Virus record (IMG/VR): IMGVR_UViG_3300028920_000023
Length of the DNA stretch: 64,000 nt
Source of the DNA: a virus
Taxonomy: Duplodnaviria > Caudoviricetes
Strand: one strand, 5' to 3'
The notes below the pieces were generated by a model, which was not told where the DNA came from, did no database searches, and saw only the letters and a program-made list of their open reading frames with translations. Positions 877-45,675 of this stretch are shown here, in pieces. The number at the start of each line of letters is the position of its first letter. Position 1 is the stretch's first letter. The position numbers were made by a program, and so were the translations under genes.

Positions 877-916
877 CTGACGAGGTACGAATCCCTTTCC
901 CTAGTGGAAAGGGAAG
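877..916 (+). repeat. hammerhead-core-like element, type B (T-A closing pair)
   Basis: CTGACGA-G GTA C-GAA-TCCCTTTCC ctagt GGAAAGGGA-A-G; 2 nt after upstream stop. Confidence 0.85.
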
Positions 917-938
917 AAACCAAACAAGGAGAACAAAA

Positions 939-1256
939 ATGGTCGAATACAAATTCACCAACGTCAAATTCCACGTCGACGAAGAAAACATCATCATCTG
1001 CGACCTGGAATTCGTCAACGAACACGGACACCCACTCAAACGCTGCGAGAACGTCCTCTTCCAAGTCGGAAGAGAAGGCATCCTAACCGACGGGGAGATA
1101 GGCGTTCGAGATGACGAGGAAGGGCCGTACATGGAACGCGCTCGAGAGAAGTACGGCAAGAACTATCCAGGTTGGGATGTTTACAACAAAGAGGATTTCG
1201 AGAGGGCTTACCTCACATGGTGCAATGAAGGCAACGATAACGAGGTTCCATTCTAA
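939..1256 (+). CDS. hypothetical protein (105 aa)
   Basis: AAGGAG RBS; acidic VPF C-terminus. Confidence 0.75.
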   Translation: MVEYKFTNVKFHVDEENIIICDLEFVNEHGHPLKRCENVLFQVGREGILTDGEIGVRDDEEGPYMERAREKYGKNYPGWDVYNKEDFERAYLTWCNEGNDNEVPF

Positions 1257-1345
1257 CCGAATCCTCAATAGCAAGAGCTGCCAAATGAGATCCTTCGGGA
1301 ACCGGGTTAGAATATTTCAATACAGCAAGAGCTGCCAAATGAGAC

Positions 1346-1386
1346 CTGACGAGGTACGAATCCCCTTTCCACTAGGGAAAGGGAAG
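1346..1386 (+). repeat. hammerhead-core-like element, type B
   Basis: CTGACGAG GTA CGAA TCCCCTTTCC acta GGGAAAGGGA AG. Confidence 0.85.
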
Positions 1387-1407
1387 AAACCAAACAAGGG
1401 AGGTAAC

Positions 1408-1644
1408 ATGGAAAAATTGACTGATGAGGAGCTGGAAGTGGTCCAGGATTATTTTCTGGATAGTGATGTTACTTCTGTTGTCTGGATTGAGGCTCATGAT
1501 GATGTTCGGATTGTTAAGCAGACGGTTGAGGAGGTCATTCGTGGAGTGAGGGAGAACAAGTTGGTGTCTGCTTATTTTAAGCTCAAGGGTGAGTCTATGG
1601 ATTGGTGGGTTGAGGCTTTGGAGAAGAGCTTGAGGGGTGTTTGA
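1408..1644 (+). CDS. hypothetical protein (78 aa)
   Basis: GGAGG RBS; codon third positions strongly G/T-biased. Confidence 0.7.
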   Translation: MEKLTDEELEVVQDYFLDSDVTSVVWIEAHDDVRIVKQTVEEVIRGVRENKLVSAYFKLKGESMDWWVEALEKSLRGV

Positions 1645-1670
1645 GTTTGGTCCGAAGGACAGGGCGAATT

Positions 1671-1710
1671 CTGATGAGTTTCGAATCTCTTTCCTGAGTG
1701 GAAAGGGATG
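1671..1710 (+). repeat. hammerhead-core-like element, type B
   Basis: CTGATGAG TTT CGAA TCTCTTTCC tgagt GGAAAGGGA TG. Confidence 0.85.
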
Positions 1711-2084
1711 TTCTTTAGAGGGGTTCTTGGGTAATTCTTACCTGGTGTTTGGAGGGAGGAATTATTCCTATTTTGTTGATATTACGCTGTGTGTATTTCT
1801 ACACAGTGTGCGCGATGTTTGGCTTGTTGTTTAATTGTATCGTATATGTCAAGGGGATATAAGTTCGATACCCCCTTCGAGGTATTTTTGTGGCCAGTCA
1901 ATATATGCGCGAGGGCAACGAAGTATAAATCGGTCCCCCTCTTCTTTTGTGTTTGGAGGGGTGTTGTTGATGGGGTAGTGTTCTCGAGTTGTGGATCAAG
2001 AGTTGACCGAGAGATGTTTTTCTGTTTTTGTTCTACGTGGAACGTGTTTCTGTTTAGCAGGTGCGGCCCATTTCCACACAGGAA

Positions 2085-2125
2085 ATGATGAGGCTTTGGT
2101 TGAAACAGAGGGGTTTTTCTTTGTT
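2085..2125 (+). repeat. degenerate hammerhead-core-like element, type A
   Basis: ATGATGAG GCTTTGGT TGAAACAGAG...CTTTGTT. Confidence 0.6.
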
Positions 2126-2163
2126 TGTGTTGTTTGGGGTTTGATCTGTGTTTTTCTTGTTCT

Positions 2164-2204
2164 CTGATGAGGTGTCGAATCCTTTTCCTGTGTGGAGGGG
2201 GATG
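2164..2204 (+). repeat. hammerhead-core-like element, type B
   Basis: CTGATGAG GTGT CGAA TCCTTTTCC tgtgt GGAGGGGGA TG. Confidence 0.85.
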
Positions 2205-2236
2205 TTTTTCTGTTTTCCTGTTTAGAGGAGGTGGTG

Positions 2237-2720
2237 ATGGGCGAAACAAAAGCAACAGATACAGGTGTAGTGGCTTGTGTCTGGGAAGGAGACGAAAAGG
2301 GGATTTTCCCTGTCTTCGTCGTCGAGGACGCTAGGGGAGTGTGTGAACATTTCCTAAGTTTTGGGCGAACAGAAACCGGCGGGGTGGTTTTATCTCTCCT
2401 ACTTGGTGCAGAAAGGAAAAGGAAGATATGCTATTGGTCTCTTCCCCAACCTGCCGGAGGACGTCGGTACTTTGCTCTTTCGGCCCTTGGTTTTCTTGGG
2501 CCGGGATATGGGGCATGGGCTGACGTCTTTTGTGTTTGCGAATACTTATGGGGAGATCGAAGAACAGGGGGGAGTGAGGGTTGGGTTTCTAGATGTTAGG
2601 GATTTTGATGCGGGTGAGTTTAGCAGGGGCGGTTTATTTTCGCCGTATGCGATCGATGGGGTGAATGTTTCTTTGGATGAGCGTTATCGACGTTACCTCC
2701 GGAGGCTGTTGGGGGTGTAA
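2237..2720 (+). pseudogene. frameshifted paralog of 17468-18079
   Basis: Two overlapping ORFs (2192-2599, 2361-2720) match consecutive parts of the 17468 protein (CVWxGxExGIxP; YAIGLFPNL); removing one T from TTTT at 2359-2362 joins them. Confidence 0.7.
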
Positions 2721-2888
2721 CGGCGGGAGGGTATCAAGACAGAGGTCATTAATTCGTTGTTGGGTGATTATCAGCTGGAGGTTGATGGGAGCAAAAGGAG
2801 AGGGTTTGATCCTTTTGCTCCTTCGAGGTATGATCTTGATTCTGCGGTGGCTACGGCGGAGGAGCTTGGTTATTGTTAGTCGTGGGGC

Positions 2889-2928
2889 CTGATGAGTTTC
2901 GAATCCTTTTCCTGGGTGGAGGGGGATG
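2889..2928 (+). repeat. hammerhead-core-like element, type B
   Basis: CTGATGAG TTT CGAA TCCTTTTCC tgggt GGAGGGGGA TG. Confidence 0.85.
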
Positions 2929-2950
2929 TGTTTTCTTGAGTGGAAAGGGG

Positions 2951-2985
2951 GTGGTGAGTTTCGGATCCTCTCGAGTGGAGGGATG
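2951..2985 (+). repeat. degenerate hammerhead-core-like element, type B
   Basis: GTGGTGAG TTT CGGA TCCTCTC gagt GGAGGGA TG. Confidence 0.55.
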
Positions 2986-3005
2986 TTTTTCTTTGTGTTT
3001 TTCTG

Positions 3006-3251
3006 TTGTTATTTGGGGTCTGTGATTGGGGGAGTGAGCAATGCCGAGTTTTGATATTGTTTCTTGGATTCAGTCGAATACGGAGATTGTGGATAAGTTG
3101 CAGGCTGAGGGGTTATGAAGCGATTACTGATGGGTATGTGAAGCGTTGGGTTGAGTCGAATCGTGAGGTTTGGGATGAGGATGAGTCGGATTTTGATAGT
3201 TATGAGGAGGAGGTTGTTAGTAGTCTTAGGGATCATTTCGGGCAGGGTTAG
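3006..3251 (+). CDS. hypothetical protein, start uncertain
   Basis: C-terminal half is protein-like and acidic; N-terminus doubtful. Confidence 0.4.
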   Translation: MLFGVCDWGSEQCRVLILFLGFSRIRRLWISCRLRGYEAITDGYVKRWVESNREVWDEDESDFDSYEEEVVSSLRDHFGQG

Positions 3252-3261
3252 GTTGTGGGTT

Positions 3262-3304
3262 CTGATGAGGCTTTGGCCGAAACAGAGGGGTGTTTTTCTC
3301 TGTT
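3262..3304 (+). repeat. hammerhead-core-like element, type A (A-T closing pair, GTT triplet)
   Basis: CTGATGA-GGC TTTG GCC-GAA-ACAGAG...CTCTGT-T. Confidence 0.85.
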
Positions 3305-3349
3305 TGTGTTTGGTGTTTTTCTGTTGTTAGCTTTAGTGAGGGGGTGGGT

Positions 3350-3670
3350 ATGTCTGTTGTTTCTGTTGATGTTGGGTTGGTTCCTCAGCGGAAGGTTGTG
3401 GGTGATGATGTGGAGTTGGAGGTGGTTGTTTATTTGTGTTCGGATGATGTGGAGGATGTGGATACTGTGCCGCTTGTTGATTGTTTTGATGATGAGTGTT
3501 GTGTTCCTGCCCTATCGATTCCGGGTTTGGGTGAGGGGGAGTCGTGGGCTGTTGTGGGGGAGGGTGAGGTGTCGACGGTTTATCCGGGGAACCGTCATTG
3601 GTTTTTGTTTAATAGGTTTCCGAAGAATATGGGGGAGGCTTGGAAAGTGGTTGAGAATTATTTGTTTTGA
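3350..3670 (+). CDS. hypothetical protein (106 aa)
   Basis: G-rich RBS; lies between two repeat elements. Confidence 0.65.
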   Translation: MSVVSVDVGLVPQRKVVGDDVELEVVVYLCSDDVEDVDTVPLVDCFDDECCVPALSIPGLGEGESWAVVGEGEVSTVYPGNRHWFLFNRFPKNMGEAWKVVENYLF

Positions 3671-3680
3671 GTGTGTTTTC

Positions 3681-3719
3681 CTGATGAGTGTCGAATCCTT
3701 TCCTGGGTGGAAAGGGATG
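3681..3719 (+). repeat. hammerhead-core-like element, type B
   Basis: CTGATGAG TGT CGAA TCCTTTCC tgggt GGAAAGGGA TG. Confidence 0.85.
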
Positions 3720-3887
3720 TTTTTCTTGTTGGAGGTTGTTGGTTTTGTTAATCTCGGGTTCGGGATCTGAAAGGAGCGTTTTGAGTGCGGTATTCAATCG
3801 GGACTTGTAAGACTGCCCCAAGACAGAGATCATTTTAGTAAGACTCGACCCTGTGAATTTGTCCAGCAAAACATTCAGATTAGGTTC

Positions 3888-3927
3888 CTGATGAGTGTCG
3901 AATCCTTTTCCTGGGTGGAAAGGGATG
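3888..3927 (+). repeat. hammerhead-core-like element, type B
   Basis: CTGATGAG TGT CGAA TCCTTTTCC tgggt GGAAAGGGA TG. Confidence 0.85.
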
Positions 3928-3977
3928 TTACTCCAAATCTATTTTGGGGCACACATTGTGCACGGAAAGGAGAACTG

Positions 3978-4257
3978 ATGAATGACAACAATTACTGCAG
4001 TCAGTGTGGTCGGACGACCAGACACAGTGTGTCCGGGATCATCTACACTTGCGAAAGATGTGGAGTCCGGCGGTTCCGCATACCAAATAGACGGCCCTGG
4101 GATAATAAGGACTGTAAATCTTTTTTGCCCAAAGTGCAAAACTTGCACAAGGCATGATATTAAGACGGCTAAAGAGAGAGCCTGTACTGTTTGTGGGCAC
4201 CGGCTGTTTACTAGAGGGACTGGTCGGGTGAGTCAGAGGATTTTTATTCGTTTGTAG
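3978..4257 (+). pseudogene. double zinc-ribbon protein, frameshifted
   Basis: CSQC..TRH..CERC in one frame and CPKC..TRH..CTVC in the next; joined by deleting one T of T6 at 4121-4126. Confidence 0.6.
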
Positions 4258-4742
4258 TTCTTCCTTTTGTTTTTTCCGCTTTTTTCTTTTTCTTTTTCTT
4301 TTTCTTTTTCTTTTACTGCTTCTGTGTGTCAGGGGTGGGGTGGTGTGTGTTTATGGGGAATTCGATTGGAGAGGAGTGTGTGTGTGAGTTTGGCTTTTTT
4401 GCTTGCGTCTTTGGCGTTGCCTCCTGTGCGTCAGCCGTTGGTTGCGGGGGTGCGTCATCGGGCGTCTAAGAAGCTTCGGAGGGTTAGGAAGCGGCAGCGT
4501 CAGAATAGAAAGAGAGGTAGAAGAAGATGAGGGGTTCGGTTACGCCGGCGAAACGGACTAGGGAGGGTGTTAGGGTTTTTTTGTGGGATAATCCTGAGTT
4601 GAGGAGGGCTTGGAGGGAGGCTTGTCAGAGGGAGCGTAAGGAGTGTCAGGTTGAGCGGGCTTGGCGGGGGAAGAAGTCTTGAGTGTGGGTGTGGTTACTT
4701 ACGTTTTTTTTCTTTGGCGGGGTAGGGTGGTGTGGTTGTTTT

Positions 4743-4785
4743 CTGATGAGGCTTTGGCCGAAACAGAGGAGGGTGTTTCTCTGTT
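4743..4785 (+). repeat. hammerhead-core-like element, type A
   Basis: CTGATGAGGCTTTGGCCGAAACAGAGGAGGGTGTTTCTCTGTT. Confidence 0.85.
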
Positions 4786-4825
4786 TGTGTTGGACAGGTA
4801 ACCGTTCTGGGAGGGAGGAAGGAAC

Positions 4826-5263
4826 ATGCCGGAAGAGAGTAAATTCGAGATAGGTCAGCGTGTGAGCCATAAGGGCTGTCCGGGGACGCTCGAGGGTTTC
4901 CGTACGGACGCGCCTGGTGGTTTCCGTTCGGGTGTGCCTGGGGATGCGCCTGTGGCGATTGTCAGGTGGGATGACGGGAAGACGGGTGATGTTGTGTTGG
5001 GTGAGTTGAAGCCAAGGCCGTATCCTTATGATTATGTGGTTAAGGTTGTGGCTGTGAATGGTGTGAGTCGTTGTGTTATCTACACGGACGATACGGCGTT
5101 TGGGTTTAAGGATGAGGAGGAGGCTTTCGCCAGAGCCAGGGAACTTGCCAAGAAGTATGTTGGGGAACTTGGGGGCGTGTTGCTCGGGCTTACCGTTCGG
5201 TTCGGGGGTGTGTTTGATAGTGATAATCTCTTTTTTAGGGTAGAGGTTATTCCGGTTCCTTGA
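4826..5263 (+). CDS. hypothetical protein, possible SH3-like N-terminus
   Basis: GGAGG RBS; KFEIGQRVSH...IVRWDDG pattern. Confidence 0.75.
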   Translation: MPEESKFEIGQRVSHKGCPGTLEGFRTDAPGGFRSGVPGDAPVAIVRWDDGKTGDVVLGELKPRPYPYDYVVKVVAVNGVSRCVIYTDDTAFGFKDEEEAFARARELAKKYVGELGGVLLGLTVRFGGVFDSDNLFFRVEVIPVP

Positions 5264-5297
5264 TGAGTTTCGGGTTTCTTCTTTTGTGGAGGGGTTG
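5260..5297 (+). repeat. degenerate hammerhead-core-like element, type B
   Basis: TTGATGAG TTT CGGG...; its TGA is the stop of 4826-5263. Confidence 0.5.
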
Positions 5298-5466
5298 TGT
5301 TGGTTTCGTTTTGGTGCTTTGGTTGTTTTGGGAGGGGGTTGTGATGTGTGAGCCTTAGTTGTGGGGTTTTTGGTGTTTTTTGTGTGTTCTTTTGGCTTCT
5401 TGGTATTTTGGGAGGGGGGTTGTGATGTGTGAGCCGTGATGTTGCGAATCAATAGGGGGAATGCGA

Positions 5467-5509
5467 CTGATGAGGCTTTGGCCGAAACAGAGGAGGGTGT
5501 TTCTCTGTT
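5467..5509 (+). repeat. hammerhead-core-like element, type A
   Basis: Same 43-mer as 4743; flanks can form a bulged, G-U-rich stem I. Confidence 0.85.
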
Positions 5510-5539
5510 TGTGTTTTCCTGTGAGGAAGGGGGTTTGTG

Positions 5540-6145
5540 ATGTCGATTGCTGATTTTGATGTTCGATATCGTTTTGTGCCGAAGGATCAGCTGGTGCGGT
5601 TGGATGCGGATGTGGGGTCTTTTGAGGTTAGGGAGCAGCTCACGAGGGCTGTGGCTTGTGGTTTTGGTACGTTTCGGGTGGTGGGGTTGGCTGTTCCGGA
5701 GTTTGATGGGGAGATGAGTGCGGAGTTGCGTGCTCGGTTGGATGCGGGTTTTTGGGTTGTTGAGGAAGGTGATGTGTTGTATGATCGGACTTTTGTGGCT
5801 GTGTTGTTTGAGCCTAAGTGTTTGGTGTTTGTGCCTTTTGGTAGGGATGGGGTGGCTGGGGATTCGGGGTTTTTTCCTTCTTCGGAGGATCTTGGTTCGG
5901 TGTATCGTGAGGGGATGAGTTTTGAGGAGATGCTTGCTGTTCCTGCGTATTTGCAGGGCGATGGTGTTCCGCTTACTCCTGAGGAGGTGGCTGGTTTTTG
6001 GGTGTTGGAGCGGGATAAGCTGGAGACGATGCTTGGTGTTTGTCCTGATGATCTTGATGATGATGGTGCTGTGTATGCGGCGAATTGTGGTCTGAAGACG
6101 GGTATTGCTCATGCTGCTGTGCGGATTGTGGAGCGTCCTGTCTGA
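5540..6145 (+). CDS. hypothetical protein (~201 aa)
   Basis: Long ORF between two type A elements. Confidence 0.75.
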   Translation: MSIADFDVRYRFVPKDQLVRLDADVGSFEVREQLTRAVACGFGTFRVVGLAVPEFDGEMSAELRARLDAGFWVVEEGDVLYDRTFVAVLFEPKCLVFVPFGRDGVAGDSGFFPSSEDLGSVYREGMSFEEMLAVPAYLQGDGVPLTPEEVAGFWVLERDKLETMLGVCPDDLDDDGAVYAANCGLKTGIAHAAVRIVERPV

Positions 6146-6155
6146 GTTGGGTAGG

Positions 6156-6198
6156 CTGATGAGGCTTTGGCCGAAACAGAGGAGGGTGTTTCTCTGTT
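6156..6198 (+). repeat. hammerhead-core-like element, type A
   Basis: Same 43-mer as 4743. Confidence 0.85.
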
Positions 6199-6237
6199 TG
6201 TGTTTTCTTGGGAACGGGAAGTGTTTTGGAGGAAATA

Positions 6238-6756
6238 ATGATGTATGAGGTTACGATGTTTGAGAGCAGTATTGAGGCTGCGGTGACTCGTCGGGATAAG
6301 GATTTGGAAACGGCGATTCTTGCGGCTCATAATGAGTTGATGAGGCGGCACCAGGGTGATGATTCGTGTAGGCTGAATCGTTATTGTGGGGCTTGGTCGA
6401 AGCCATCTAATCCCGAGGAGCGGCATAATCTTAGTGGGTCTGAGCCGGATTTTAGTGAGGGGGTTGTGTTGATTTGGTGTTTTGACCGGATGACGGTTGT
6501 GGAGGGTGTTGCCAGGAAGATTTTGGACAGGTCGGTTGTGTTTGTGGTGATTTCTGATCAGGAAGGTGATTTGGATGCTAGGGAGTTTGGTGGTTTGGGG
6601 GAGGCTTTGGTTTATTTTAATGAGATGCGTGAGGTGTTTGGTCTTACTGTTGGTGATTGCGGGCATGATCCTGGTTTGGTGACTGAGGAGTGGTTGGCTT
6701 CGTATAATTTGATGGCTGATGATGGGGAGGCGCGTGTTTGCTTGAGGTCTAGGTGA
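6238..6756 (+). CDS. hypothetical protein (172 aa)
   Basis: GGAGG RBS; between two type A elements. Confidence 0.75.
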   Translation: MMYEVTMFESSIEAAVTRRDKDLETAILAAHNELMRRHQGDDSCRLNRYCGAWSKPSNPEERHNLSGSEPDFSEGVVLIWCFDRMTVVEGVARKILDRSVVFVVISDQEGDLDAREFGGLGEALVYFNEMREVFGLTVGDCGHDPGLVTEEWLASYNLMADDGEARVCLRSR

Positions 6757-6765
6757 GGGGTTGTG

Positions 6766-6808
6766 CTGATGAGGCTTTGGCCGAAACAGAGGAGGGTTTT
6801 TCTCTGTT
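6766..6808 (+). repeat. hammerhead-core-like element, type A
   Basis: One loop substitution relative to 4743. Confidence 0.85.
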
Positions 6809-6906
6809 TGTGTTGTTTGTGTTGTTTGTGTTGTTTTTGTTTTGTGGAAGGAGGTTTTCATGTCTACAGGTTGTTAGGAAGGGGAGTGGTGATGTTCTTG
6901 GTGATT

Positions 6907-6949
6907 GTTATGAGGCTTTGGCCGAAACAGAGGAGGGTGTTTCTCTGTT
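6907..6949 (+). repeat. degenerate hammerhead-core-like element, type A
   Basis: GTTATGAG GCTTTGGC CGAAACAGAG...CTCTGTT. Confidence 0.75.
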
Positions 6950-6985
6950 TGGTTTGTACGTGGTTCTCGATTCGGAGGTGGGATT

Positions 6986-7186
6986 ATGACGAGCTTTGAT
7001 GGAAGGACGTGGATTCAGCAGACTGGGGCTGTGCTTCGGTTGGGGCGGGATGGCAATATGCGTCCTGCTGGTAAAAACCAGGCCAGGCGGGCTATTCGCC
7101 GCTTGGGTGGTCAGGAGCGTGCTGAGATGTGTAGGTTGTGCTTGGCGCGGGCGCTGCGGTTTGCTTTTCCTGGGAGGAAATGTTGA
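6986..7186 (+). CDS. hypothetical Arg-rich protein (66 aa)
   Basis: GGAGGT RBS; stop lies inside the next repeat element. Confidence 0.55.
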   Translation: MTSFDGRTWIQQTGAVLRLGRDGNMRPAGKNQARRAIRRLGGQERAEMCRLCLARALRFAFPGRKC

Positions 7187-7224
7187 GGCTTTGGCCGAAA
7201 TAGAGGGATGTTTTTCTCTCTGTT
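7180..7224 (+). repeat. degenerate hammerhead-core-like element, type A
   Basis: ATGTTGAG GCTTTGGC CGAAATAGAG...CTCTGTT. Confidence 0.7.
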
Positions 7225-7259
7225 TGTGTTTCTGAGTTGTTTGTGGAAAGGAGGTGGGT

Positions 7260-7605
7260 ATGGCTGGGCGGGTTCTGGAGGATGGTTTCGAGATTGGTGA
7301 TCTTAAGGATGAGTTTGGGGCGGAGGCGCTGGAGTGATCTTAAGGATGAGTTTGGGGCGGAGGCGCTGGAGAAGTTGGAGTTGATGGATCCTGCTAGCCT
7401 CAAGACGTCGAAGATTCAGAAGCAGAAGGTTGAGGGTGTTGGGCGTGTTGAGTGCTGGGTGGATGCGTGCTCGGTGGATGCGGATATGGGCCATGTTCGT
7501 TTCTGGCGTCTTCTCGATGTTGTCGATGGGGAGGGGGTTCCGGTTGTTCTTGAGGAGGATTATGGTGAGGGTTTGCTTTTTTATGGGCGGAATTACACTC
7601 TCTGA
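7260..7605 (+). pseudogene. hypothetical gene disrupted by a 37-bp tandem duplication
   Basis: AAGGAGGT RBS + ATG at 7260; exact duplication (units start at 7297 and 7334) creates an in-frame TGA. Confidence 0.65.
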
Positions 7606-7641
7606 TGAGTTTCGAATCCTTTTCCTTCGTGGAGGGGGATG
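7602..7641 (+). repeat. hammerhead-core-like element, type B
   Basis: CTGATGAG TTT CGAA TCCTTTTCC ttcgt GGAGGGGGA TG; its TGA is the upstream stop. Confidence 0.85.
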
Positions 7642-7665
7642 TTAACCTTAACAAAGGAGGTGGTG

Positions 7666-8028: not shown

Positions 8029-8200
8029 GGGCAGATATGAGCAAGGGCTCCTTCACATCTGTTGCAATGGCGAACAGATGTCAAGTGTTACTGTGTCCGA
8101 TTCCGAAGGATCCAGAAAAATCTTCGAGGGTATTCTCGGAGCTATTGACAAGATAAAAGTTTCCGATATAGACTTTACCAATAACCAACCAAAATCCTAG
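7976..8200 (+). CDS. hypothetical protein (74 aa)
   Basis: Protein-like ORF overlapping the previous gene by about 50 nt; weak RBS. Confidence 0.45.
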   Translation: MRRVAIQRIKQFLGKTIEGRYEQGLLHICCNGEQMSSVTVSDSEGSRKIFEGILGAIDKIKVSDIDFTNNQPKS

Positions 8201-8295
8201 GGGGTGTCATGGAGCATTTTTTCGTTTGCGAGGGGCCGTGTATTTGTCATCAGACGATCGAAACCCTCCGCCACGAAAGGTGCTGGTGAGGAATC

Positions 8296-8335
8296 CTGAT
8301 GAGTTTCGAATCCTTCTCCTGACTGGAGGGGGAAG
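8296..8335 (+). repeat. hammerhead-core-like element, type B
   Basis: CTGATGAG TTT CGAA TCCTTCTCC tgact GGAGGGGGA AG. Confidence 0.85.
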
Positions 8336-8674: not shown

Positions 8675-8691
8675 TATTTGTTCACGTTCCT

Positions 8692-8731
8692 CTGATGAGT
8701 TTCGAATCCTTTTCCTTCGTGGAGGGGGAAG
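8692..8731 (+). repeat. hammerhead-core-like element, type B
   Basis: Near-identical to the 7602 copy, including the 3' leader to the RBS. Confidence 0.85.
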
Positions 8732-9032: not shown

Positions 9033-9071
9033 CTGACGAGTTCGAATCCTTCTCCTAAATGGAGGAGGAAG
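9033..9071 (+). repeat. hammerhead-core-like element, type B
   Basis: CTGACGAG TT CGAA TCCTTCTCC taaat GGAGGAGGA AG; 3' tail shared with the 8296 copy. Confidence 0.85.
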
Positions 9072-10647: not shown

Positions 10648-10791
10648 ATGGTTTCGATGACTGTCGTGCTGTTCTGCAATGGGACAGAGAAGAAAATTGG
10701 TCATCAGCTCGATGCGAAATCTCTACCTATCTTGAACAACTTGAGAAAGAACGCAAAGAACTGGCCTGAGGAAGCTCGGGTTATCTGGTGA
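10648..10791 (+). CDS. hypothetical protein (47 aa)
   Basis: AAAGGA RBS; stop lies inside the next repeat element. Confidence 0.5.
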   Translation: MVSMTVVLFCNGTEKKIGHQLDAKSLPILNNLRKNAKNWPEEARVIW

Positions 10792-10825
10792 GGCTGGCCG
10801 AAACAGAGAGATGTTCTTCTCTGTT
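10785..10825 (+). repeat. hammerhead-core-like element, type A variant
   Basis: CTGGTGA-GGC TG GCC-GAA-ACAGAGA...TCTCTGT-T. Confidence 0.8.
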
Positions 10826-10859
10826 TGTGTTGTCTGTTTTTCTTTAAGGAGGGTTAGTG

Positions 10860-11857: not shown

Positions 11858-11900
11858 CTGAAGAGGCTCCTGCCGAAACCGAGAATTACACTTCTCTGTT
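11858..11900 (+). repeat. hammerhead-core-like element, type A variant
   Basis: CTGAAGA-GGC TCCT GCC-GAA-ACCGAGAA ttacac TTCTCTGT-T; loop and stem sequence changed, pairing kept. Confidence 0.8.
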
Positions 11901-11974
11901 ATTCCTGCATTACCTGATTCCATGCCAGACACAACACTGGCTAGACGGAACTTCCATACCACAAAGGAGAAAAC

Positions 11975-25131: not shown

Positions 25132-25317
25132 ATGTCCGAGGTGATAAAGGATGCAAGCGGAAGACCAATTGGCAAAATCGTTACCGAGGTGGACGGAACA
25201 ATAAAGGTTTACGACGATTTGGGCTTGCCAAAAGGCAAAGTCACCGAAGATGGGACTTTCGATGATCTTGGCATCAAGATTAGCTCAGCTCAGGTTCCCG
25301 GTTTGCTTCTAGACTGA
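25132..25317 (+). CDS. hypothetical protein (61 aa) with D..G..G repeats
   Basis: GGAGGG RBS; stop lies inside the next repeat element. Confidence 0.7.
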   Translation: MSEVIKDASGRPIGKIVTEVDGTIKVYDDLGLPKGKVTEDGTFDDLGIKISSAQVPGLLLD

Positions 25318-25351
25318 TGAGCACGAAGCAGAAGGCTTCGTGCTTTCTGCC
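25314..25351 (+). repeat. hammerhead-core-like element, G-C closing variant
   Basis: CTGATGA-G CA C-GAA-GCAGAAGGC ttcgt GCTTTCTGC-C; possible bulged stem I (TTCT-A-GA / TC-AGAA). Confidence 0.8.
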
Positions 25352-25368
25352 TCAGAAAGGAGATCAAC

Positions 25369-27204: not shown

Positions 27205-27242
27205 CTGACGAGGTAGCGAATAACTGGCTCTCGCCAGTTAAG
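27205..27242 (+). repeat. hammerhead-core-like element, type B with unrelated stem III sequence
   Basis: CTGACGA-G GTAG C-GAA-TAACTGGC tctc GCCAGTTA-A-G. Confidence 0.85.
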
Positions 27243-32593: not shown

Positions 32594-32854
32594 ATGAAAA
32601 AGATCATCAAAATCAGCCCGGACGGGAAGAATATCTCCTACGTCCACGACGACAGACTAACCGGAATGATGAAACACGGCGAAGCCAAGATAACCAGAGC
32701 CTCGCACGTCGAGCCAACCCCAGACAACAAATGGACAGCAGACCTCAGCCCAGTAAAAGGACCAATCCTAGGTCCATACAACACGAGAACTGGAGCACTG
32801 GAAGCCGAGATAAACTGGCTCAACAACAACGGACTAGGCGAATCCGAGAACTGA
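32594..32854 (+). CDS. conserved hypothetical protein (RASHVEP family)
   Basis: RASHVEP...W.ADLSPV.GP.LGP...R..AL.AE..WL motif, which I recall beside DUF1257/DUF2997/AAA genes. Confidence 0.8.
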   Translation: MKKIIKISPDGKNISYVHDDRLTGMMKHGEAKITRASHVEPTPDNKWTADLSPVKGPILGPYNTRTGALEAEINWLNNNGLGESEN

Positions 32855-32889
32855 AGAGAAACGAATCAGCAGAGCACGTCTCTGCTGAA
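32851..32889 (+). repeat. hammerhead-core-like element, type B
   Basis: CTGAAGA-G AAA C-GAA-TCAGCAGAG cacgt CTCTGCTGA-A; its TGA is the upstream stop. Confidence 0.85.
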
Positions 32890-33029
32890 CAAACCACGAA
32901 AGGAGAAAAGACATGAGCGCTGACAGGCGAAAACGACAAAGGGAAAAGGACCAATAACCCTTTTTCTTTGTCGTTGCTAAAACCTACTGGCCCCAAAAGT
33001 ATCCAGACATAAATTAACAGGAACAAAAA

Positions 33030-39051: not shown

Positions 39052-39090
39052 GGCGTTCCTCCCTGGCTAGGGTGCCGACGTAGCTGGCAC

Positions 39091-39119
39091 ATTGTAACAC
39101 AAAGCGATCTCCTTGTCAA
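39091..39119 (-). promoter_or_regulatory. host sigma70-type promoter for the sigma gene
   Basis: TTGACA-17 nt-TACAAT on the - strand, about 40 nt before the ATG. Confidence 0.75.
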
Positions 39120-39322
39120 GTACAGACCTGCAAGGAAGATATCTCCCGTGCAATGAACGGGGTGCACAGGTGCTACCCAGCTCATTTGCCTACTGGCGTC
39201 CAGCTCTTTTTGGCGGCCACATCATGTGGACAACGCATTAAGGGGCTGTATACGCAGTGTGTTTATCGGGTTAAAGACACCGGGAAATATGGCGGGTGGT
39301 GGCGGTGCCGCTACGGCGTATA

Positions 39323-39408
39323 CCCGTCGCTTGCAGACGAGCAAGCGGACGCGCCTCCCGGACGGGCGCGGTATGCTGGTACCGCCACCGGCGTGTTCAG
39401 TCGTGTTG
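39323..39408 (-). repeat. GC-rich leader element (family C), copy 3
   Basis: Near-identical to 34874; differences are mostly A>G and C>T on +. Confidence 0.85.
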
Positions 39409-39409
39409 C

Positions 39410-39889
39410 TTACGGACGAGCAAGACGGCTGCTTATGCGTGTTTTTCGTCTCTCGGTCACCTTGGGGTAGCCCTCGGGGTCGAAAGACCTTGCTGTTCTG
39501 AAGCCAATGACGTTCCTGTCGCCACCACGACAGAGTGCAAAGGTGTAGCCATCTTTGGTGAATAGCTGGTTTTTTCTTGCTTTATTTTGTTCGTAGACCA
39601 GCCAAATGGCTAGTCTGTCCAACAGAGTAGCTGCTGCTTTTGGTGGTGTTTGGCGTATTTCCAGTTCTTTTTCGCCAAATCTTAGCAGTCCTTTCGTGTA
39701 GGCCACTGGGGTTGTTTCGCTATTGTCATAACGGATTGTCCAGGGCGGGGGAGTTGGGGTCTTGCTTGGGATTGTGTGGTTGAGATCGATGATCATCGAT
39801 TGGCTCCGTAGGTATGCACATTGAGCAGTCAAATCCCTGTTTGTTTCATATCGCACATGAGCAGCGCTGAAACCCCCATCGAGCAGCAC
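39410..39889 (-). CDS. hypothetical protein, DUF4262-like (start uncertain)
   Basis: AYTKGL..FG..ELEI pattern. Confidence 0.5.
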   Translation of the reverse strand: MLLDGGFSAAHVRYETNRDLTAQCAYLRSQSMIIDLNHTIPSKTPTPPPWTIRYDNSETTPVAYTKGLLRFGEKELEIRQTPPKAAATLLDRLAIWLVYEQNKARKNQLFTKDGYTFALCRGGDRNVIGFRTARSFDPEGYPKVTERRKTRISSRLARP

Positions 39890-40774: not shown

Positions 40775-41236
40775 TCACGACTCAAAAAGAAGCTCAACAG
40801 AACCATCCTCCGAGACCTCCTCCGAATCAAAAACAAAACCCTGTTCCTCAAGCTGATCAATAGCAACCTGCTTAGAATACTCACGCATCAACTTATTGCA
40901 ATCCTTCTCACCATCCCCAATGTGACCCATCAAACCAAAACCACCATTATAAAAATCATAGATAACCCGAAAACCACCCTCCCCATCATCAACAAGACCA
41001 ACCTCATAAGCACCAGAAACACCCCTAACCCTCAACACATGATCACACTTACCATACTGACTAGGATCAACACCATCACGATACGCAGCATCCTCAGCAT
41101 GATAATCATTCACCCACTTACCAAACCACCTATACGTCTTTTGGCCACGGACAAGCTCCAAACCAAGCCTGTCCGCAGCACGCTCCAAACAATCCAAATC
41201 AGTCACACGAACCTTCATCGTAACAACATGACTCAT
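40775..41236 (-). CDS. DUF1257 (Ycf35-like) protein, second copy
   Basis: MSHVVTMKVRVTDLDCL..AA.RLG; Y...VA...L...GF. Confidence 0.8.
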   Translation of the reverse strand: MSHVVTMKVRVTDLDCLERAADRLGLELVRGQKTYRWFGKWVNDYHAEDAAYRDGVDPSQYGKCDHVLRVRGVSGAYEVGLVDDGEGGFRVIYDFYNGGFGLMGHIGDGEKDCNKLMREYSKQVAIDQLEEQGFVFDSEEVSEDGSVELLFES

Positions 41237-41487
41237 TCAGTCACCTCCTTAGGATCGCCAAGCGTAGCACCATCATCCAGAAAGCTCTCGGGAATTGCGA
41301 ACCTGACACCACTTAGGTGTTCTCTCATATTCTTCTCGGTCTCTTCCTTGTCCTTGACTCCACAAGCATAGCAGATATAAGCTCCGTTGCGCCCATATGG
41401 GCGCAACTCCGCAATTTTGCCGCAATAATCACACTGTTGCGGCTTTTCTCTCCCAATCACAAAAACGTCCCCAATCCTCTTGCTCAT
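41233..41487 (-). CDS. small zinc-finger protein
   Basis: CDYCG...ELRPYG..G..IC..C. Confidence 0.7.
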   Translation of the reverse strand: MSKRIGDVFVIGREKPQQCDYCGKIAELRPYGRNGAYICYACGVKDKEETEKNMREHLSGVRFAIPESFLDDGATLGDPKEVTE

Positions 41488-43454
41488 ATCATCCCCCAAA
41501 AATCAGACTCACTAATAATCTCCACACCAAGCTTCCTAGCCTTCTTAGTCTTAGACGACTCCTTAGAAGGATCAGCCTGGACAAGGAAATCAACCCCAGA
41601 AGCAACCTTATCAGACGTGGTTCCACCATTCCGCACAACCACATCCCACATCATCTTCCGAGTAAAACGCTTCCCATCCTCACCCACCTTCTCAATAGCA
41701 CCCGTAAACACAAAACACTTACCAGCAAGAGAACCACCAGAAACAACCGGTGCCTCAGGAGACTCCTCCTCCACAATCCGAACACCAGCATCCAAAAGAC
41801 CCTGATAAAGACCACGGCCAATAACACCACAAATACCCTCACAAACCGCAGTAGCCTTACGCTCACTGAAACCCTCTAAAGCAGAAAGCCTCTCCGGATC
41901 CAACGACAACATATCAACCTGCCCAATACCCTGAGAAATCATAATCTCCATCTGACGACGACCCAAGAACTGGATACCAAGCGAACCCCAAAACTCCTGA
42001 AGGGAGCAAGACTTAGACTTCTCCAATTCGGCCATAATCCTCTTAGCATTAGAACCAACCACACCATTCCCACGAGGGATCGCAGCCAAAACATCCTCAG
42101 TCAAACCATACAGATCAGCCGGAGTCCTAATACCATAATTGTCATACAAGGTCTCCAACAACGTATCACCAATATGCAAAATATTCCTCTTGGTGATCCA
42201 CGTCTTAAGAAGACGAAACTGCTTACCCTCACAGGAATCAGACATACACTTGATATGCGCCCCATCCTTCACTAGCTCAGAAAAGCAAACAGGGCAATTC
42301 GTAGGAGTAAAAATCTGCTCCCTATCCGCAGCTTCATTCGCCACACCAATAACCTTCGGAATAACATCACCAGAACGGATGACCTTGACCTCGTCCCCAA
42401 CAGCCACCCTCAGGCGCTCGATCTCCTCAAAATTGTTCAGAAGAGCACTCGTAACCGTAACTCCCCCAATATGCACAGGAGCCAAATCCGCAGTAGGAAT
42501 AATCGCCCCAGTATGCCCAACCGTAAGCTTAACACCAAGAAGCTTCGTAGTCGCCTCCATAGCCTTAAACTTAAACGCAATACCACCCTTCGGACGATTA
42601 TCGCGAACACCAAGATCCGAAAAAACATCAGAATCATTAAAAAACACAACAAGACCATCAATCTCAACATCCAAACCAGCCCTATCAGAAGCAACCTGCT
42701 GGTGAGTAGCATAGACATCATCCACAGTATGGTGGAGAACAAACCATACCACCTCAAAACCAAGCGATTGAAGAAAAACCAACTTCTCAGAATGAGAAAC
42801 GAATTCATCATCCCCAATCACATCAAACGCGATAAACGAAATACACTGCGCACGATCGCCATCACTCCTTCTGACCGTGCCATTCGCCGCATTCCTCGCG
42901 TTCGCAGCATCACCAAAATGCTTCTCAAAATCCTCCTTAAGAAGAATAGCCTCACCACGAACATGAAGATCCGAACGAATAGGAATCCTCACAGGAACAT
43001 TCTTGAACTTTCGGGCATTTCGCGTAATATCCTCACCGAAATGGCCATCACCACGAGTTATAGCCTGGACCAAAATCCCATCCTTATAAATAAGCTCTAC
43101 CGAAGAACCATCGAGCTTATGCATAACCAACAGCTCAGCCATTTCAGATTCAATACCAACATCCTTAATCCGCCTAGCATGCCACTCCCTGAACGAAGGC
43201 GTGGCATTATCCCCATCTCTTGAGCAATTATTCAAACTGCCCATAGGGATCTTATGTTCAGCCTTCGTCAGGTGATCAGCTACCGGAGCGCCCACAGACG
43301 ACAAAATGGGATGATCCGGACACTTCTCACGAACGTAATCCTTAAGCTCATCATACTCGGCATCAGACATGATACTACTGCCGGTATTGTAATAAGCTCT
43401 GTCAGCTTCCATGAGCTTAGACGTAACTTCCTTAAGTTGGTCTTTCATCGACAT
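41484..43454 (-). CDS. ligA: NAD-dependent DNA ligase
   Basis: SDAEYD; KLDG adenylation Lys; TRGDG..GEDIT; EVRGE-like HVRGE; DGLV; AFKF; OB fold; Zn finger; HhH; C-terminal BRCT. Confidence 0.95.
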   Translation of the reverse strand: MSMKDQLKEVTSKLMEADRAYYNTGSSIMSDAEYDELKDYVREKCPDHPILSSVGAPVADHLTKAEHKIPMGSLNNCSRDGDNATPSFREWHARRIKDVGIESEMAELLVMHKLDGSSVELIYKDGILVQAITRGDGHFGEDITRNARKFKNVPVRIPIRSDLHVRGEAILLKEDFEKHFGDAANARNAANGTVRRSDGDRAQCISFIAFDVIGDDEFVSHSEKLVFLQSLGFEVVWFVLHHTVDDVYATHQQVASDRAGLDVEIDGLVVFFNDSDVFSDLGVRDNRPKGGIAFKFKAMEATTKLLGVKLTVGHTGAIIPTADLAPVHIGGVTVTSALLNNFEEIERLRVAVGDEVKVIRSGDVIPKVIGVANEAADREQIFTPTNCPVCFSELVKDGAHIKCMSDSCEGKQFRLLKTWITKRNILHIGDTLLETLYDNYGIRTPADLYGLTEDVLAAIPRGNGVVGSNAKRIMAELEKSKSCSLQEFWGSLGIQFLGRRQMEIMISQGIGQVDMLSLDPERLSALEGFSERKATAVCEGICGVIGRGLYQGLLDAGVRIVEEESPEAPVVSGGSLAGKCFVFTGAIEKVGEDGKRFTRKMMWDVVVRNGGTTSDKVASGVDFLVQADPSKESSKTKKARKLGVEIISESDFWGMI

Positions 43455-43461
43455 AACTCCT

Positions 43462-44244
43462 TTAGAGATCCAAGATTCGCGAACCGATCGAAGCAAAAGC
43501 ACCCACAACCTGCCTACTGACAGAAGATTTACCCATCTTCTTTTCGACTTCCTCTACCAAATCATCACTTTTCTTCTCATCAAAATCCAAAATCCGCTTC
43601 GGATGCTGAATATTCACAGCCGAAACCCTATTAGGTCCGGAATCCAGATCGAGAACACGAGCACTCTTCGCAAAAGTATCGATCGCAATGACCTGGCGAA
43701 CGGACTCAGCCAATCTCTTAACAAAATTACGCACACCAGCAGCAAAACCCGAACTGGTCTGATAAGAGGAAGAGAAACCGAGATCAGAATCGAGATCAGA
43801 CAACGTCCTAGTCTCATTCTTGGATAAAACAAGATGAGTTCTTTCTCTAGTCCAAGAATTCATTATCTCCACATAGATATGATCTGTGGGATTATAACCA
43901 GGAAGCTCAACAAGCCTATTATCCTCAAGACGTACAAACAAAGTCCGCACAATCTTGTTCTGATGGCCGATATCATCAGCCGTCTGCTTCTCCTCCTTAT
44001 ATTGCTTATCGTCTACAAGCTGATACCTCTTCCCAGCTTTGTCTTTCGTCTTATCTGCAATTTTCTTCTGTATAAAGCGCGCAGCAGCATCATGAGTACC
44101 GAATCTCTTGGTCTGTTCAGAAATATTAGAACCAATTCTGCCCCATTTAATCTCGACAGTCGTATCGTCTATGAACTTGTAACTCCACAGCTTATTGCTG
44201 TTAGAGTCCTTGCTGATGTACCGAATCTCTTTCCCTATATCCAT
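43462..44244 (-). CDS. WGR-domain protein with three RxLD(L/F) motifs
   Basis: KLWSY...IKWGRIG; ends RILDL. Confidence 0.8.
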   Translation of the reverse strand: MDIGKEIRYISKDSNSNKLWSYKFIDDTTVEIKWGRIGSNISEQTKRFGTHDAAARFIQKKIADKTKDKAGKRYQLVDDKQYKEEKQTADDIGHQNKIVRTLFVRLEDNRLVELPGYNPTDHIYVEIMNSWTRERTHLVLSKNETRTLSDLDSDLGFSSSYQTSSGFAAGVRNFVKRLAESVRQVIAIDTFAKSARVLDLDSGPNRVSAVNIQHPKRILDFDEKKSDDLVEEVEKKMGKSSVSRQVVGAFASIGSRILDL

Positions 44245-44268
44245 TTGCTACCTCCTACTCGGGGTTAA

Positions 44269-44307
44269 TTCAGCAGAGATTACCTCTGCTGATTCGGAAC
44301 TCCTCAG
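44269..44307 (-). repeat. hammerhead-core-like element, type B
   Basis: CTGAGGA-G TTC C-GAA-TCAGCAGAG gtaat CTCTGCTGA-A; its TGA is the upstream stop. Confidence 0.85.
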
Positions 44308-45227
44308 TCTAAATCAAGCTTCCTGCCATGACCCAAGATACTCTCGCGGGCCTTGTCCAAACTGGACCTGAGATCATCAACACCCCCTGCAATCAGGTGC
44401 TCATAAGAGCCAATACGGGCTTTGATCTTGGCGATCTCCTCTAGCTTATTCTTGAGCCATTTATCACCAACATCTTTATTCCCGGAAGTGACTTCCGAGA
44501 TCTTCTTCTCCAAGTTCTCCAAAGAGGACTGGAATTCCGTAGAAGCTGCATTGCCTACAACTTCCTGAGCGTGGGCCACATTCGGCATCGGGAAGAAAGA
44601 CAGATAATTGCCCCCACCCAAAGTGCCCAAGAATTCGGCCAAATTCCGCACAGTCTGCTCGTAAGCAGCAGGCACGAAATACACACAGCCTTGATCCCGC
44701 AAGGACACGATATCCGCGTTCTCTCGAAGAATCGATTTGATATATCGCGTCACATCAGAAGAAGAATACGTAACTTTCTGAGCACCAAATTCCTCAACGA
44801 CCCGATCTTTGATCTCGGAAACCGAGCAAGTGACAGCAGCCGAGAAATCCTTCGTCTCACGATAACGCTGCTTATCCACCAAGAAACTGGCTTCCCGACT
44901 ATAAGACAACTCCGCCTCAGCGCCAGTACCGTTCTTCAGTTCCGCTGTGAACTGATAATTCATAAAGCGATCATCCTCATCTGCCAAACGGATAATACGC
45001 TGTTCCTCCATAGCACGAAGAGAACGAGTAAGGGCACTCCTATAATTGTGTTCCCGAGCGTATTTCTCATCAAAACCACAACTCACAAGAGCCTGTTTGA
45101 ACTCCTCTTGGGTGATGTTCACGTTCCGGACATTCCACCAGATCATATAACCAAGGATCTGGAAGTCTTGATCACCCTCAACGAACTGACCCATCAAAAG
45201 ATTCTGAGCTACTTGCGTTTCTGTCAT
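44304..45227 (-). CDS. hypothetical protein, DUF6744/DUF3150-like
   Basis: GYMIWW..., coiled-coil C-terminus, ends RKLDLD; family assignment from memory. Confidence 0.75.
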   Translation of the reverse strand: MTETQVAQNLLMGQFVEGDQDFQILGYMIWWNVRNVNITQEEFKQALVSCGFDEKYAREHNYRSALTRSLRAMEEQRIIRLADEDDRFMNYQFTAELKNGTGAEAELSYSREASFLVDKQRYRETKDFSAAVTCSVSEIKDRVVEEFGAQKVTYSSSDVTRYIKSILRENADIVSLRDQGCVYFVPAAYEQTVRNLAEFLGTLGGGNYLSFFPMPNVAHAQEVVGNAASTEFQSSLENLEKKISEVTSGNKDVGDKWLKNKLEEIAKIKARIGSYEHLIAGGVDDLRSSLDKARESILGHGRKLDLD

Positions 45228-45264
45228 AAATCCTCCTTTGGCTAGAAGCCGAACCTGAAAATCC

Positions 45265-45615
45265 CTATTTGATCACGCTATTGGGCGGAGAAACCGGCAA
45301 ATGCTCGGGATGTCTTTTTGCCAAATCCCTCAGAGCATCAGAAACCATCTGGTTAAAATACCCAGAATTGGCAACGAAATCATAGGAGGAGATATACGAG
45401 CAATTGCCCAGATAAGACGTCTCCTCATCAACGACCCTGTTACGGTCCTTAAGCTGAGCAGTAACCGTGGCTGTACACCAGCCCCACCCGCCCTTAGCGA
45501 TTTTCATCACCTTGCGGACTGCTTCAGCATAACCTTCACAGGAACTTGTTCTTCTCTCGGATTGCTCCGGAGTCTCATGTTCCTTCACATTGTCGACTAC
45601 GATCACAAGTTTCAT
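45265..45615 (-). CDS. hypothetical protein (116 aa)
   Basis: AAAGGAG RBS. Confidence 0.7.
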   Translation of the reverse strand: MKLVIVVDNVKEHETPEQSERRTSSCEGYAEAVRKVMKIAKGGWGWCTATVTAQLKDRNRVVDEETSYLGNCSYISSYDFVANSGYFNQMVSDALRDLAKRHPEHLPVSPPNSVIK

Positions 45616-45634
45616 GGCTTCTCCTTTGGTCAAT

Positions 45635-45675
45635 AGGAGGGCAAGGACTTCTTGCCCTCCTTCCCAAATCGTCCG
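45635..45675 (-). repeat. degenerate hammerhead-core-like element, G-C closing variant
   Basis: CGGACGA-T TTG G-GAA-GGAGGGCAAG aagtc CTTGCCCTCC-T, directly after the AAA stop. Confidence 0.55.

Follow-up and report, generated by a model that had tools for sequence, protein, structure and literature searches.

Clustered hammerhead ribozymes that flank single prophage genes, and that cleave both in vitro and in vivo, have been described (Perreault et al., 2011; PMC3088659); among them, a natural stem II of one base pair (bp) works and a natural U15.1-A16.1 variant cleaves weakly. In engineered miniribozymes, a single G10.1-C11.1 pair with a linker of 4 nucleotides (nt) is sufficient for very high activity in vitro (Hendry et al., 2004; PMC544870). 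Here, we analyze a 64,000-nt stretch of DNA (hereafter, the window) of a Caudoviricetes virus, IMG/VR record IMGVR_UViG_3300028920_000023, in which short elements with the core of a hammerhead ribozyme recur at gene boundaries. The phage that carries them is a jumbo phage from marine sediment, and the stretch is held in three sediment-metagenome DNA runs. The elements are located mainly in the gaps between the genes of an array, which spans ~15 kb and consists of small genes with no assigned function and of an early-type appearance, and also at a few other gene junctions.

An earlier, sequence-only reading of the window interpreted these elements either as a self-cleaving RNA family that cuts polycistronic mRNA into single-gene units, or as a hammerhead-derived motif reused without catalysis. 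The hammerhead ancestry proposed there is well supported by the present analysis. The elements are very probably hammerhead-derived RNAs that fold from the sense strand, because all 12 fixed positions of the hammerhead core are matched, N7 alone is free to vary, canonical copies are present in the same array, and the core is held under a strong base bias; the gene-boundary context, which matches that of the clustered prophage hammerheads, argues for the same ancestry. We estimate at about 0.5 the probability that the elements have kept the ability to cut themselves after position 17, be it slowly or helped by a chaperone, and thereby process polycistronic RNA.

Results

Conservation of the hammerhead core

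The loose pattern CTGANGA-N3-12-GAA gave 32 matches in the window, compared with 9.25 expected. A strict descriptor, consisting of CUGANGA, a stem II with a closing pair of at least 1 bp, GAA, and then immediately a perfect hairpin of at least 6 bp, gave 19 matches, compared with 0.15 in block-wise dinucleotide shuffles (shuffle maximum, 1). A relaxed scan of the window, in which the one-mismatch matches elsewhere were at the background level of 22 per shuffle, brought up an additional intact copy at position 104. Two further assemblies of the same phage, L191 and L192, are 99.85-100% identical across the array, and L191, which reaches 5,140 bases upstream of the window, provides the coordinates of the upstream copies.

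In the 21 copies that were parsed, C3, U4, G5, A6, G8, A9, G12, A13, and A14 are invariant. As the earlier reading had stated, any of the four bases can occur at N7 while the rest of the core is kept in the intact copies, and N7 is the sole core position that varies freely. The intact copies all retain the 10 unpaired bases of the core. G12-A13-A14 sits directly between stems II and III in the intact copies, and the G10.1-C11.1 pair is present in 19 of the 21, the exceptions being L191:4496 and window 104, which have unpaired linkers. Stem II comprises 3-4 bp in the type A copies and one G-C pair with a loop of 2-4 nt in the type B copies. Loop II varies in sequence as well as in length (2-4 nt), and loop III varies too. 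Position 17 is A, U, or C in all 21 copies and is never G, despite the A-to-G bias of the block in which many of them lie.

The consensus of type A is CUGAUGA-GGC-UUUG-GCC-GAA-ACAGAGG..CUCUGU-U, and that of type B is CUGAYGA-G-N2-4-C-GAA-UCCUUUUCC-N5-GGARRGGGA-(A/U)-G. Type B is a coherent architecture rather than a single repeat family, since its 1-bp stem II combined with U15.1-A16.1 is found with three stems that are unrelated to one another, those of the main group, of 27205, and of 32851/44307. The 15.1-16.1 pair has the identities reported before: the type A copies have A-U, all type B copies have U-A, and 25314 has G-C; A-U is also present in window 104, L191:3910, and L191:4496. The A15.1-U16.1 pair of the hammerhead is therefore not kept across the family, being U-A in type B and G-C at 25314.

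Selection on the core under base bias

Window 1650-9100 shows an extreme coding-strand bias, with a GC skew of +0.45 to +0.50 and 85% G/T at third codon positions. The eight intact type B copies of this G+T-rich block were compared with the copies of the A-rich region as the reference. The C/A sites of the core (C3, A6, A9, C11.1, A13, and A14; six per copy) were changed in 0 of 48 cases, compared with 20 of 72 for the C/A sites of stem III (Fisher p = 2e-5, which is a rough value, as the copies share ancestry). N7, on the other hand, was changed from C to U in eight of nine copies within the block. Because the core C/A sites remained unchanged under a bias that changed the stem sites and N7, the core is under selection.

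These results bear on the possibility that the elements are decaying relics, that is, hammerheads that were copied with gene cassettes, lost stem I by recombination, and are now inert, with the hairpin serving perhaps as a 3' stabilizer or a weak terminator. Six copies are visibly decayed, the near-identity of the type A copies to one another points to a recent spread, and the hairpins of the G+T-rich block often have U-rich tails and terminator-like scores, all of which such relics would explain. The unchanged core under the same bias that altered the stems is not expected of relics, however, nor is the bimodal distribution of the core changes, which number 0 or 3 per copy: the decayed type B copies (2951 and 5260) have three core changes each, and each shares its intergenic gap with an intact copy. 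In addition, the type B architecture persists on its three unrelated stems at distant loci, and the copies of the A-rich region lack a U tract. We thus regard inert relics as improbable. An intrinsic terminator was also rejected, as the U-rich tails are confined to the generally T-rich block; the copies at 877, 1346, 27205, 32851, 44307, window 104, and L191:3910/4989 have other tails (e.g. AGAAACC, AGGGAC).

Third-codon-position usage is opposite in two classes of genes of the window. The positions are 85-93% G/T in one class (2234-8028 on + and 40775-44244 on -; the small-gene block, the open reading frame (ORF) 40775-41236, and the NAD ligase), versus 56-68% A/C in the other (353-1644 and 11975-24886 on +; 37093-39889 on -). 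This split does not represent a replication skew, because it tracks the coding strand of each gene and not the DNA strand; temporal class, tRNA pool, and nuclease avoidance are possible causes.

Stem III pairing and the strand that folds

The wholesale replacement of stem III between subfamilies with the pairing kept, which had been noticed before, was confirmed by counts of own and non-cognate pairing. The 21 copies hold 183 stem III pairs, of which 158 are Watson-Crick pairs, 25 are G.U pairs, and none are mismatches. Across the eight unrelated versions of the stem (ACACC, ACCCUCUCC, AACCACCC, UCCCUUUCC, ACAGAGGAG, GCAGAAGGC, UAACUGGC, and UCAGCAGAG), strands paired with their own partners at 66 of 66 positions, compared with 178 of 426 (42%) for the non-cognate combinations. 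The stem begins right after A14 and stops right before position 17. As the unrelated stems resisted alignment with MAFFT, covariation was counted by our own script.

The 25 G.U pairs of the sense strand correspond to C.A mismatches on the template strand, in up to three of the nine pairs of a copy. These wobbles, to which the earlier reading had drawn attention, show which strand folds, but they are not independent proof of selection, because the local C-to-U and A-to-G bias turns Watson-Crick pairs into wobbles automatically.

The pairing also bears on a signal at the DNA level, such as a promoter (including one with an N4-type hairpin), a recombination site, or a mobile miniature element, which we consider very improbable. 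The repeats are dispersed and oriented with the genes, G is the first base after the hairpin, and short-read assemblies break at the elements, as would suit such a signal. On the other strand, however, the 25 G.U pairs are mismatches, the identity of the stem is free whereas the single-stranded letters are fixed in the pattern of a hammerhead, and the elements have neither terminal inverted repeats nor target duplications; all copies are in the sense of transcription, unlike a transposing element. The promoter type used by the N4 virion RNA polymerase requires a hairpin in the template DNA strand, and here that hairpin is broken by the C.A mismatches. A sigma-70 promoter was rejected, as the element carries no sigma-70-like hexamer pair, and so was mimicry of a tRNA T-arm by GUUCGAAUC, for which there is no T stem.

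Stem I and the reduction series

Stem I had been described as 1-2 bp in most copies; it is indeed short, with a range of 0-4 bp. In the hammerhead register it usually consists of just the 2.1-1.1 pair (C-G or U.G); four copies have 2 bp and two have 3 bp, and there is no pair at all (0 bp) in 3262, 4743, and 32851. Most copies thus do not have the stem I of a hammerhead, and 5 bp are found solely in two canonical copies upstream of the window. These are identical type I hammerheads at L191:2774-2827 and 3061-3114 (window -2366 to -2313 and -2079 to -2026), which lie ~2.3 and ~2.0 kb before the window, 287 nt apart, and flank a small ORF. Each has stem I CCCAA/UUGGG (5 bp), CUGAAGA, a 7-bp stem II, GAA, a 5-bp stem III, and C17, and the minimum-free-energy fold is the exact three-way junction. 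The single co-oriented array is therefore a reduction series that leads from the textbook hammerhead through stem I lengths of 5, 3, 2, 1, and 0 bp, and, with stem II lengths of 7, 3, 1, and 0 bp, a natural deletion series within a single transcript unit.

In a sample of 118 other viral loci, genuine hammerheads whose stem II measures 1-2 bp still have C17 and a 5-7 bp stem I, and the loss of stem I in the present elements is unusual for this reason. Nine small viral genomes in IMG/VR, of ~6.2 kb (L199, L213, L228, L264, L280, L292, L298, L303, and L310), each contain two complete type I hammerheads, ~4.65 kb apart, in which stem II is reduced to one or two G-C pairs, whereas stem I has 5-7 bp and position 17 is C.

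The conserved unit runs from C3 or 2.1 to 1.1. The repeat has sharp edges, and its 3' end is the base that follows the hairpin in type B, and UUGUGUU in type A. No hint of a partner RNA was found; conservation sets in precisely at C3 or 2.1. Other folds and pairings were rejected. Wobbles, bulges, or a shifted register gave nothing conserved, and the shifted registers bury C3 and U4. A downstream hairpin that would serve as a closed stem I is missing in the compact cassettes. For a type III or discontinuous fold, the 45 nt upstream of the type A copies hold no partner of ACAGAG. Maxizyme-like dimers via loop II would be available to 877 and 1346 alone, which carry the self-complementary GUAC.

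Two cassettes, L191:3455-3510 and 3835-3885, contain GAA, the CCCUUUCC hairpin, and the leader A-GGGRCAACAGAA(A)GGAG but lack a CUGANGA strand. Either these copies have decayed completely, or the hairpin and leader work alone. The cassettes bear on the possibility that the elements are a non-catalytic fold derived from the hammerhead, the core and hairpin of which are recognized by a phage or host protein (an endoribonuclease, a chaperone, or a regulator) that cuts the neighboring messages or stabilizes or regulates them. The hairpin-only cassettes (L191:3460 and 3840) keep the same 5' leader, which suggests that the hairpin works without catalysis, and the lack of stem I, the U15.1-A16.1 pair of type B, a core that is still under selection, and the constant distance to the Shine-Dalgarno sequence, which fits a processing or stabilizing signal, can all be accommodated. 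The freedom of N7, of loops II and III, and of the identity of stem III, together with the exclusion of G at position 17, would be unexpected for a protein site and is as in ribozyme chemistry; moreover, no candidate protein was found, and canonical hammerheads occupy the same type of junction within the array. We therefore judge recognition of a non-catalytic fold by a protein to be rather unlikely.

Inventory and gene context

The roughly 28 elements listed in the sequence-only reading exist at their coordinates, with some corrections: the one on the minus strand at 45675 is not a member, six are decayed, 25314 is ambiguous, and the copy at 104 had been overlooked. The tally for the window is thus 21 intact, 6 decayed, 1 ambiguous (25314), and 1 rejected copy (45675) (Table 1). 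The decayed copies (2085, 2951, 5260, 6907, 7180, and 10785) all carry core mutations. For 25314, the predicted fold is the stronger 11-bp alternative hairpin, which uses up the GAA. The rejected copy, 45628..45675 (-), has CGGACGA (U4->G) in place of the core and no G10.1-C11.1 pair, and is a plain GC-rich 10-bp hairpin ahead of a ribosome-binding site.

Table 1. Coordinates and features of the individual elements (positions of the window, or of L191 where marked)
Class	Position	Strand	Features
Intact	104..140	+	linker CGA replaces stem II; A15.1-U16.1; A17 at 139; stem I CCC/GGG, 3 bp
Type B, intact	877..916	+	G-GUA-C; U15.1-A16.1; A17 at 915; stem I 1 bp
Type B, core intact	1346..1386	+	one mismatch/bulge in stem III; A17 at 1385
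Type B, intact	1671..1710	+	G-UUU-C; U17 at 1709
Type A, decayed	2085..2126	+	C3->A, C11.1/C11.2->U; intact copy 79 nt downstream in the same gap
Type B, intact	2164..2204	+	G-GUGU-C; U17 at 2203
Type B, intact	2889..2928	+	U17 at 2927; stem I 2 bp
Type B, decayed	2951..2985	+	C3->G, A6->G, A13->G; 62 nt after intact 2889
Type A, intact	3262..3305	+	stem II GGC/GCC; A15.1-U16.1; U17 at 3304; stem I 0 bp
Type B, core intact	3681..3719	+	one bulged G in stem III; U17 at 3718
Type B, intact	3888..3927	+	U17 at 3926
Type A, intact	4743..4786	+	U17 at 4785; stem I 0 bp
Type B, decayed	5260..5298	+	C3->U, A13->G, A14->G; shares gap with intact 5467
Type A, intact	5467..5510	+	U17 at 5509
Type A, intact	6156..6199	+	U17 at 6198
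Type A, intact	6766..6809	+	U17 at 6808; stem I register gives four G.U pairs, nothing else
Type A, decayed	6907..6950	+	C3->G, G5->U
Type A, decayed	7180..7225	+	C3->A, A6->U, C15.2->U
Type B, intact	7602..7641	+	U17 at 7640; stop of upstream gene is UGA of CUGA; start codon 23 nt downstream
Type B, intact	8296..8335	+	A17 at 8334
Type B, intact	8692..8731	+	A17 at 8730
Type B, intact	9033..9071	+	G-UU-C; A17 at 9070
Type A, decayed	10785..10826	+	A6->G; loop II shortened
Type A-like, core intact	11858..11901	+	N7 = A; loop II UCCU; one stem III mismatch; U17 at 11900
Ambiguous	25314..25352	+	core letters present; G15.1-C16.1; C17; 11-bp competing hairpin
Type B architecture	27205..27242	+	unrelated stem III UAACUGGC; A17 at 27241; stem I 2 bp
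Type B architecture	32851..32890	+	stem III UCAGCAGAG; N7 = A; A17 at 32889; stem I 0 bp; stop of upstream ORF is UGA of CUGA
Type B architecture	44268..44307	-	stem III as 32851; N7 = G, loops II and III differ; A17 at 44269; stop of upstream 307-aa gene is UGA of CUGA
Upstream copy	L191:3910		G-UUUU-C; A15.1-U16.1; stem I 3 bp
Upstream copy	L191:4496		unpaired linker GAAAA; A15.1-U16.1; stem I 2 bp
Upstream copy, type B	L191:4989		

As had been described, every element shares the orientation of its flanking genes and follows a stop codon, but the stop often lies within CUGA itself. The UGA inside CUGA is the upstream stop at 5260 in addition to 7602, 32851, and 44307, and possibly also at 2889, 2164, 25314, and 27205. 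The 5' flank is not free to pair, because it is coding sequence. The start codon follows 18-53 nt past the element, preceded in most cases by a Shine-Dalgarno sequence, and in the compact cassettes it stands 23-25 nt after position 17. Across the three sediment runs and the two other assemblies, no sequence variant was found in any element.

Among the gene products of the window are AAA ATPases, an NAD-dependent ligase, a subtilase, and DUF4116 repeat proteins, and the nearest named phages are just remotely similar. Eleven in-frame 66-nt tandem repeat units occupy window 11983-12924, within the DUF4116 repeat-protein genes (11975-13039 and 13017-14456), and short-read contigs show alternative joins at these repeats. 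A small gene contains a perfect 37-nt tandem duplication (7297-7370). The ribosome-binding site and first five codons of the gene at 11224 (11224-11259) are repeated at 6842-6877, followed by a stop, and this gene-start remnant adjoins the decayed element at 6907. Just upstream of the element at 27205 lies a near-perfect hairpin of ~118 nt (26948-27065), which matches a microRNA model at chance level (26.9 bits, E=0.11). A phage tRNA-Arg (UCU) is located at 60332-60409, and a gene for an Rv2179c-like 3'-5' exoribonuclease at 63392-63922 (-) (Pfam PF16473, from precomputed matches). Two ORFs antisense to the array, 4646-6112 (-) of 488 aa and 6109-6861 (-) of 250 aa, have no Pfam match, and were rejected as genes and taken to be low-complexity artefacts of the T-poor strand.

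Database and comparative searches

The sequence-only reading had suggested a comparison with the Rfam hammerhead models and a scan of related phages. The reduced elements match no hammerhead model of Rfam. At E<=10, the lone match was a 21-bit hit of Hammerhead_3 to 6135-6182 (copy 6156; E=6), which was rejected as it is in the type III register and is backed by no other copy. For the canonical copies, the best score was that of L191:2756-2827 with RAGATH-1-hammerhead, 19.8 bits with E=0.65, and both copies remain far below the threshold of every hammerhead model. With R1, a model derived from 11 copies of type B, the divergent copies were detected weakly (E=0.005 for 44307, 0.58 for 32851, and 1.9 for 27205).

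In the scan of related phages, comprising 70 loci of jumbo phages that share the AAA ATPase (<=44% identity) and 120 other loci, matches were at the background level alone and no diverged relatives were found. The exact type A and type B strings gave 0 matches and 1 chance match, respectively, in IMG/VR. No homologues of the array proteins were found, and a literature search for hammerheads without stem I or in jumbo phages returned nothing relevant.

Discussion

If the elements do self-cleave after position 17, slowly or with the help of an RNA chaperone, cleavage would give each gene of the polycistronic transcript its own message. The message on the upstream side of a cut would end with the stem III hairpin and a 2',3'-cyclic phosphate, and the one on the downstream side would begin with a 5'-OH, which in the compact cassettes would lie ~8-13 nt before the Shine-Dalgarno sequence. 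As no stem I would retain the 3' product, the cut could not be reversed and would not depend on the flanks. Such independence would suit the cassettes, in which a coding sequence ends in the upstream flank.

Several observations weigh against self-cleavage. Stem I comprises 0-2 bp in 17 of the 21 parsed copies, and we know of no hammerhead, natural or engineered, in which stem I is shorter than 3 bp. There are competing folds: an A14-U17 pair can form, and C3 and U4 become buried if the CCC/GGG runs pair in a shifted register. Type B unites three weakening changes, namely U15.1-A16.1, a 1-bp stem II, and the lack of stem I. The hairpin may have a role of its own, given the hairpin-only cassettes. 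The copies are paralogues in one genome, and the three DNA samples are identical at the elements; consequently, the pairing does not provide independent phylogenetic covariation. The runs listed with the stretch are DNA runs, with no RNA run among them. Finally, a Rfam scan at gathering thresholds returned one tRNA and no hammerhead, although this negative is weak because the canonical copies, too, score far below threshold.

Going one step beyond self-cleavage, we tentatively propose that the elements represent a natural hammerhead subclass that cleaves with essentially no stem I. Such a ribozyme would lie wholly 5' of the cleavage site except for one downstream nucleotide, would act irreversibly and irrespective of its flanks, and may have been selected in the phage gene array, in which case the single-pair stem II of type B and its U15.1-A16.1 would be co-adapted to this form.

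Phage hammerheads at gene boundaries are known, yet their helices have been taken as indispensable. The most reduced forms in this array carry internal evidence of continued selection on the catalytic core. If they cleave, the minimal natural hammerhead would be redefined, the persistence of ribozymes in cassettes with coding or changing flanks would be explained, and a compact, 3'-side self-cleaving module of ~40 nt, which leaves the downstream RNA without a scar, would be available for insulating the genes of synthetic operons. If they do not cleave, they would be a clear case of a ribozyme core that has been taken over for another role at the RNA level.

Comparison with known systems

Viroid and newt hammerheads with an unstable helix, which act as double hammerheads or with the assistance of protein, have a stem III that is too weak for activity as monomers and is rescued in dimeric transcripts. 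The elements resemble them in that one helix is weak, but the weak helix of the elements is stem I, and no pairing between dimers is available in their flanks. A helix I of 3 nt was reportedly sufficient in the asymmetric hammerheads of Tabler and colleagues from 1994 (cited in PMC1995221); window 104 and L191:3910 have 3 bp, whereas most copies have 0-2 bp.

In the minizymes and miniribozymes of McCall and Hendry, stem-loop II is swapped for a G10.1-C11.1 pair with a 4-nt linker, or for an unpaired linker. The G-UUUU-C of L191:3910 is the all-RNA equivalent of the four-deoxythymidine linker of Hendry et al. (2004; PMC544870), and L191:4496 and window 104 resemble the engineered unpaired linkers. 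The engineered minizymes act in trans, with arms of 6-12 nt for helices I and III, whereas the natural elements would act in cis, if at all, and with almost no helix I.

Like the elements, the RAGATH-1 hammerhead (RF03152), which is the sole hammerhead model that touches a canonical copy of the array, follows the type I order and has one pair in stem II and a short stem III. The model differs from them in its 5-bp stem I, 5' hairpin, A15.1-U16.1 pair, and C17, and the elements that lack stem I are unmatched by it even in a relaxed search.

With the clustered prophage hammerheads (PMC3088659), the elements share the presence of several cores per polycistronic unit, the location at gene boundaries, the sense orientation, and the phage origin of the DNA, and the role proposed for those clusters is likewise the cutting of long transcripts into gene-length messages. 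The prophage ribozymes have all three helices, usually with a tertiary contact between stems I and II or a pseudoknot, and occur as two or three per locus. The phage of the window, in contrast, has ~27 copies, most of them with a stem I of 0-2 bp, and its type B subclass unites a 1-bp stem II and U15.1-A16.1 with the absence of stem I. Clusters of hammerheads in phages, a stem II of 1 bp, and a U15.1-A16.1 pair are thus each known, and it is the near-absence of stem I that distinguishes the present elements from the described systems.

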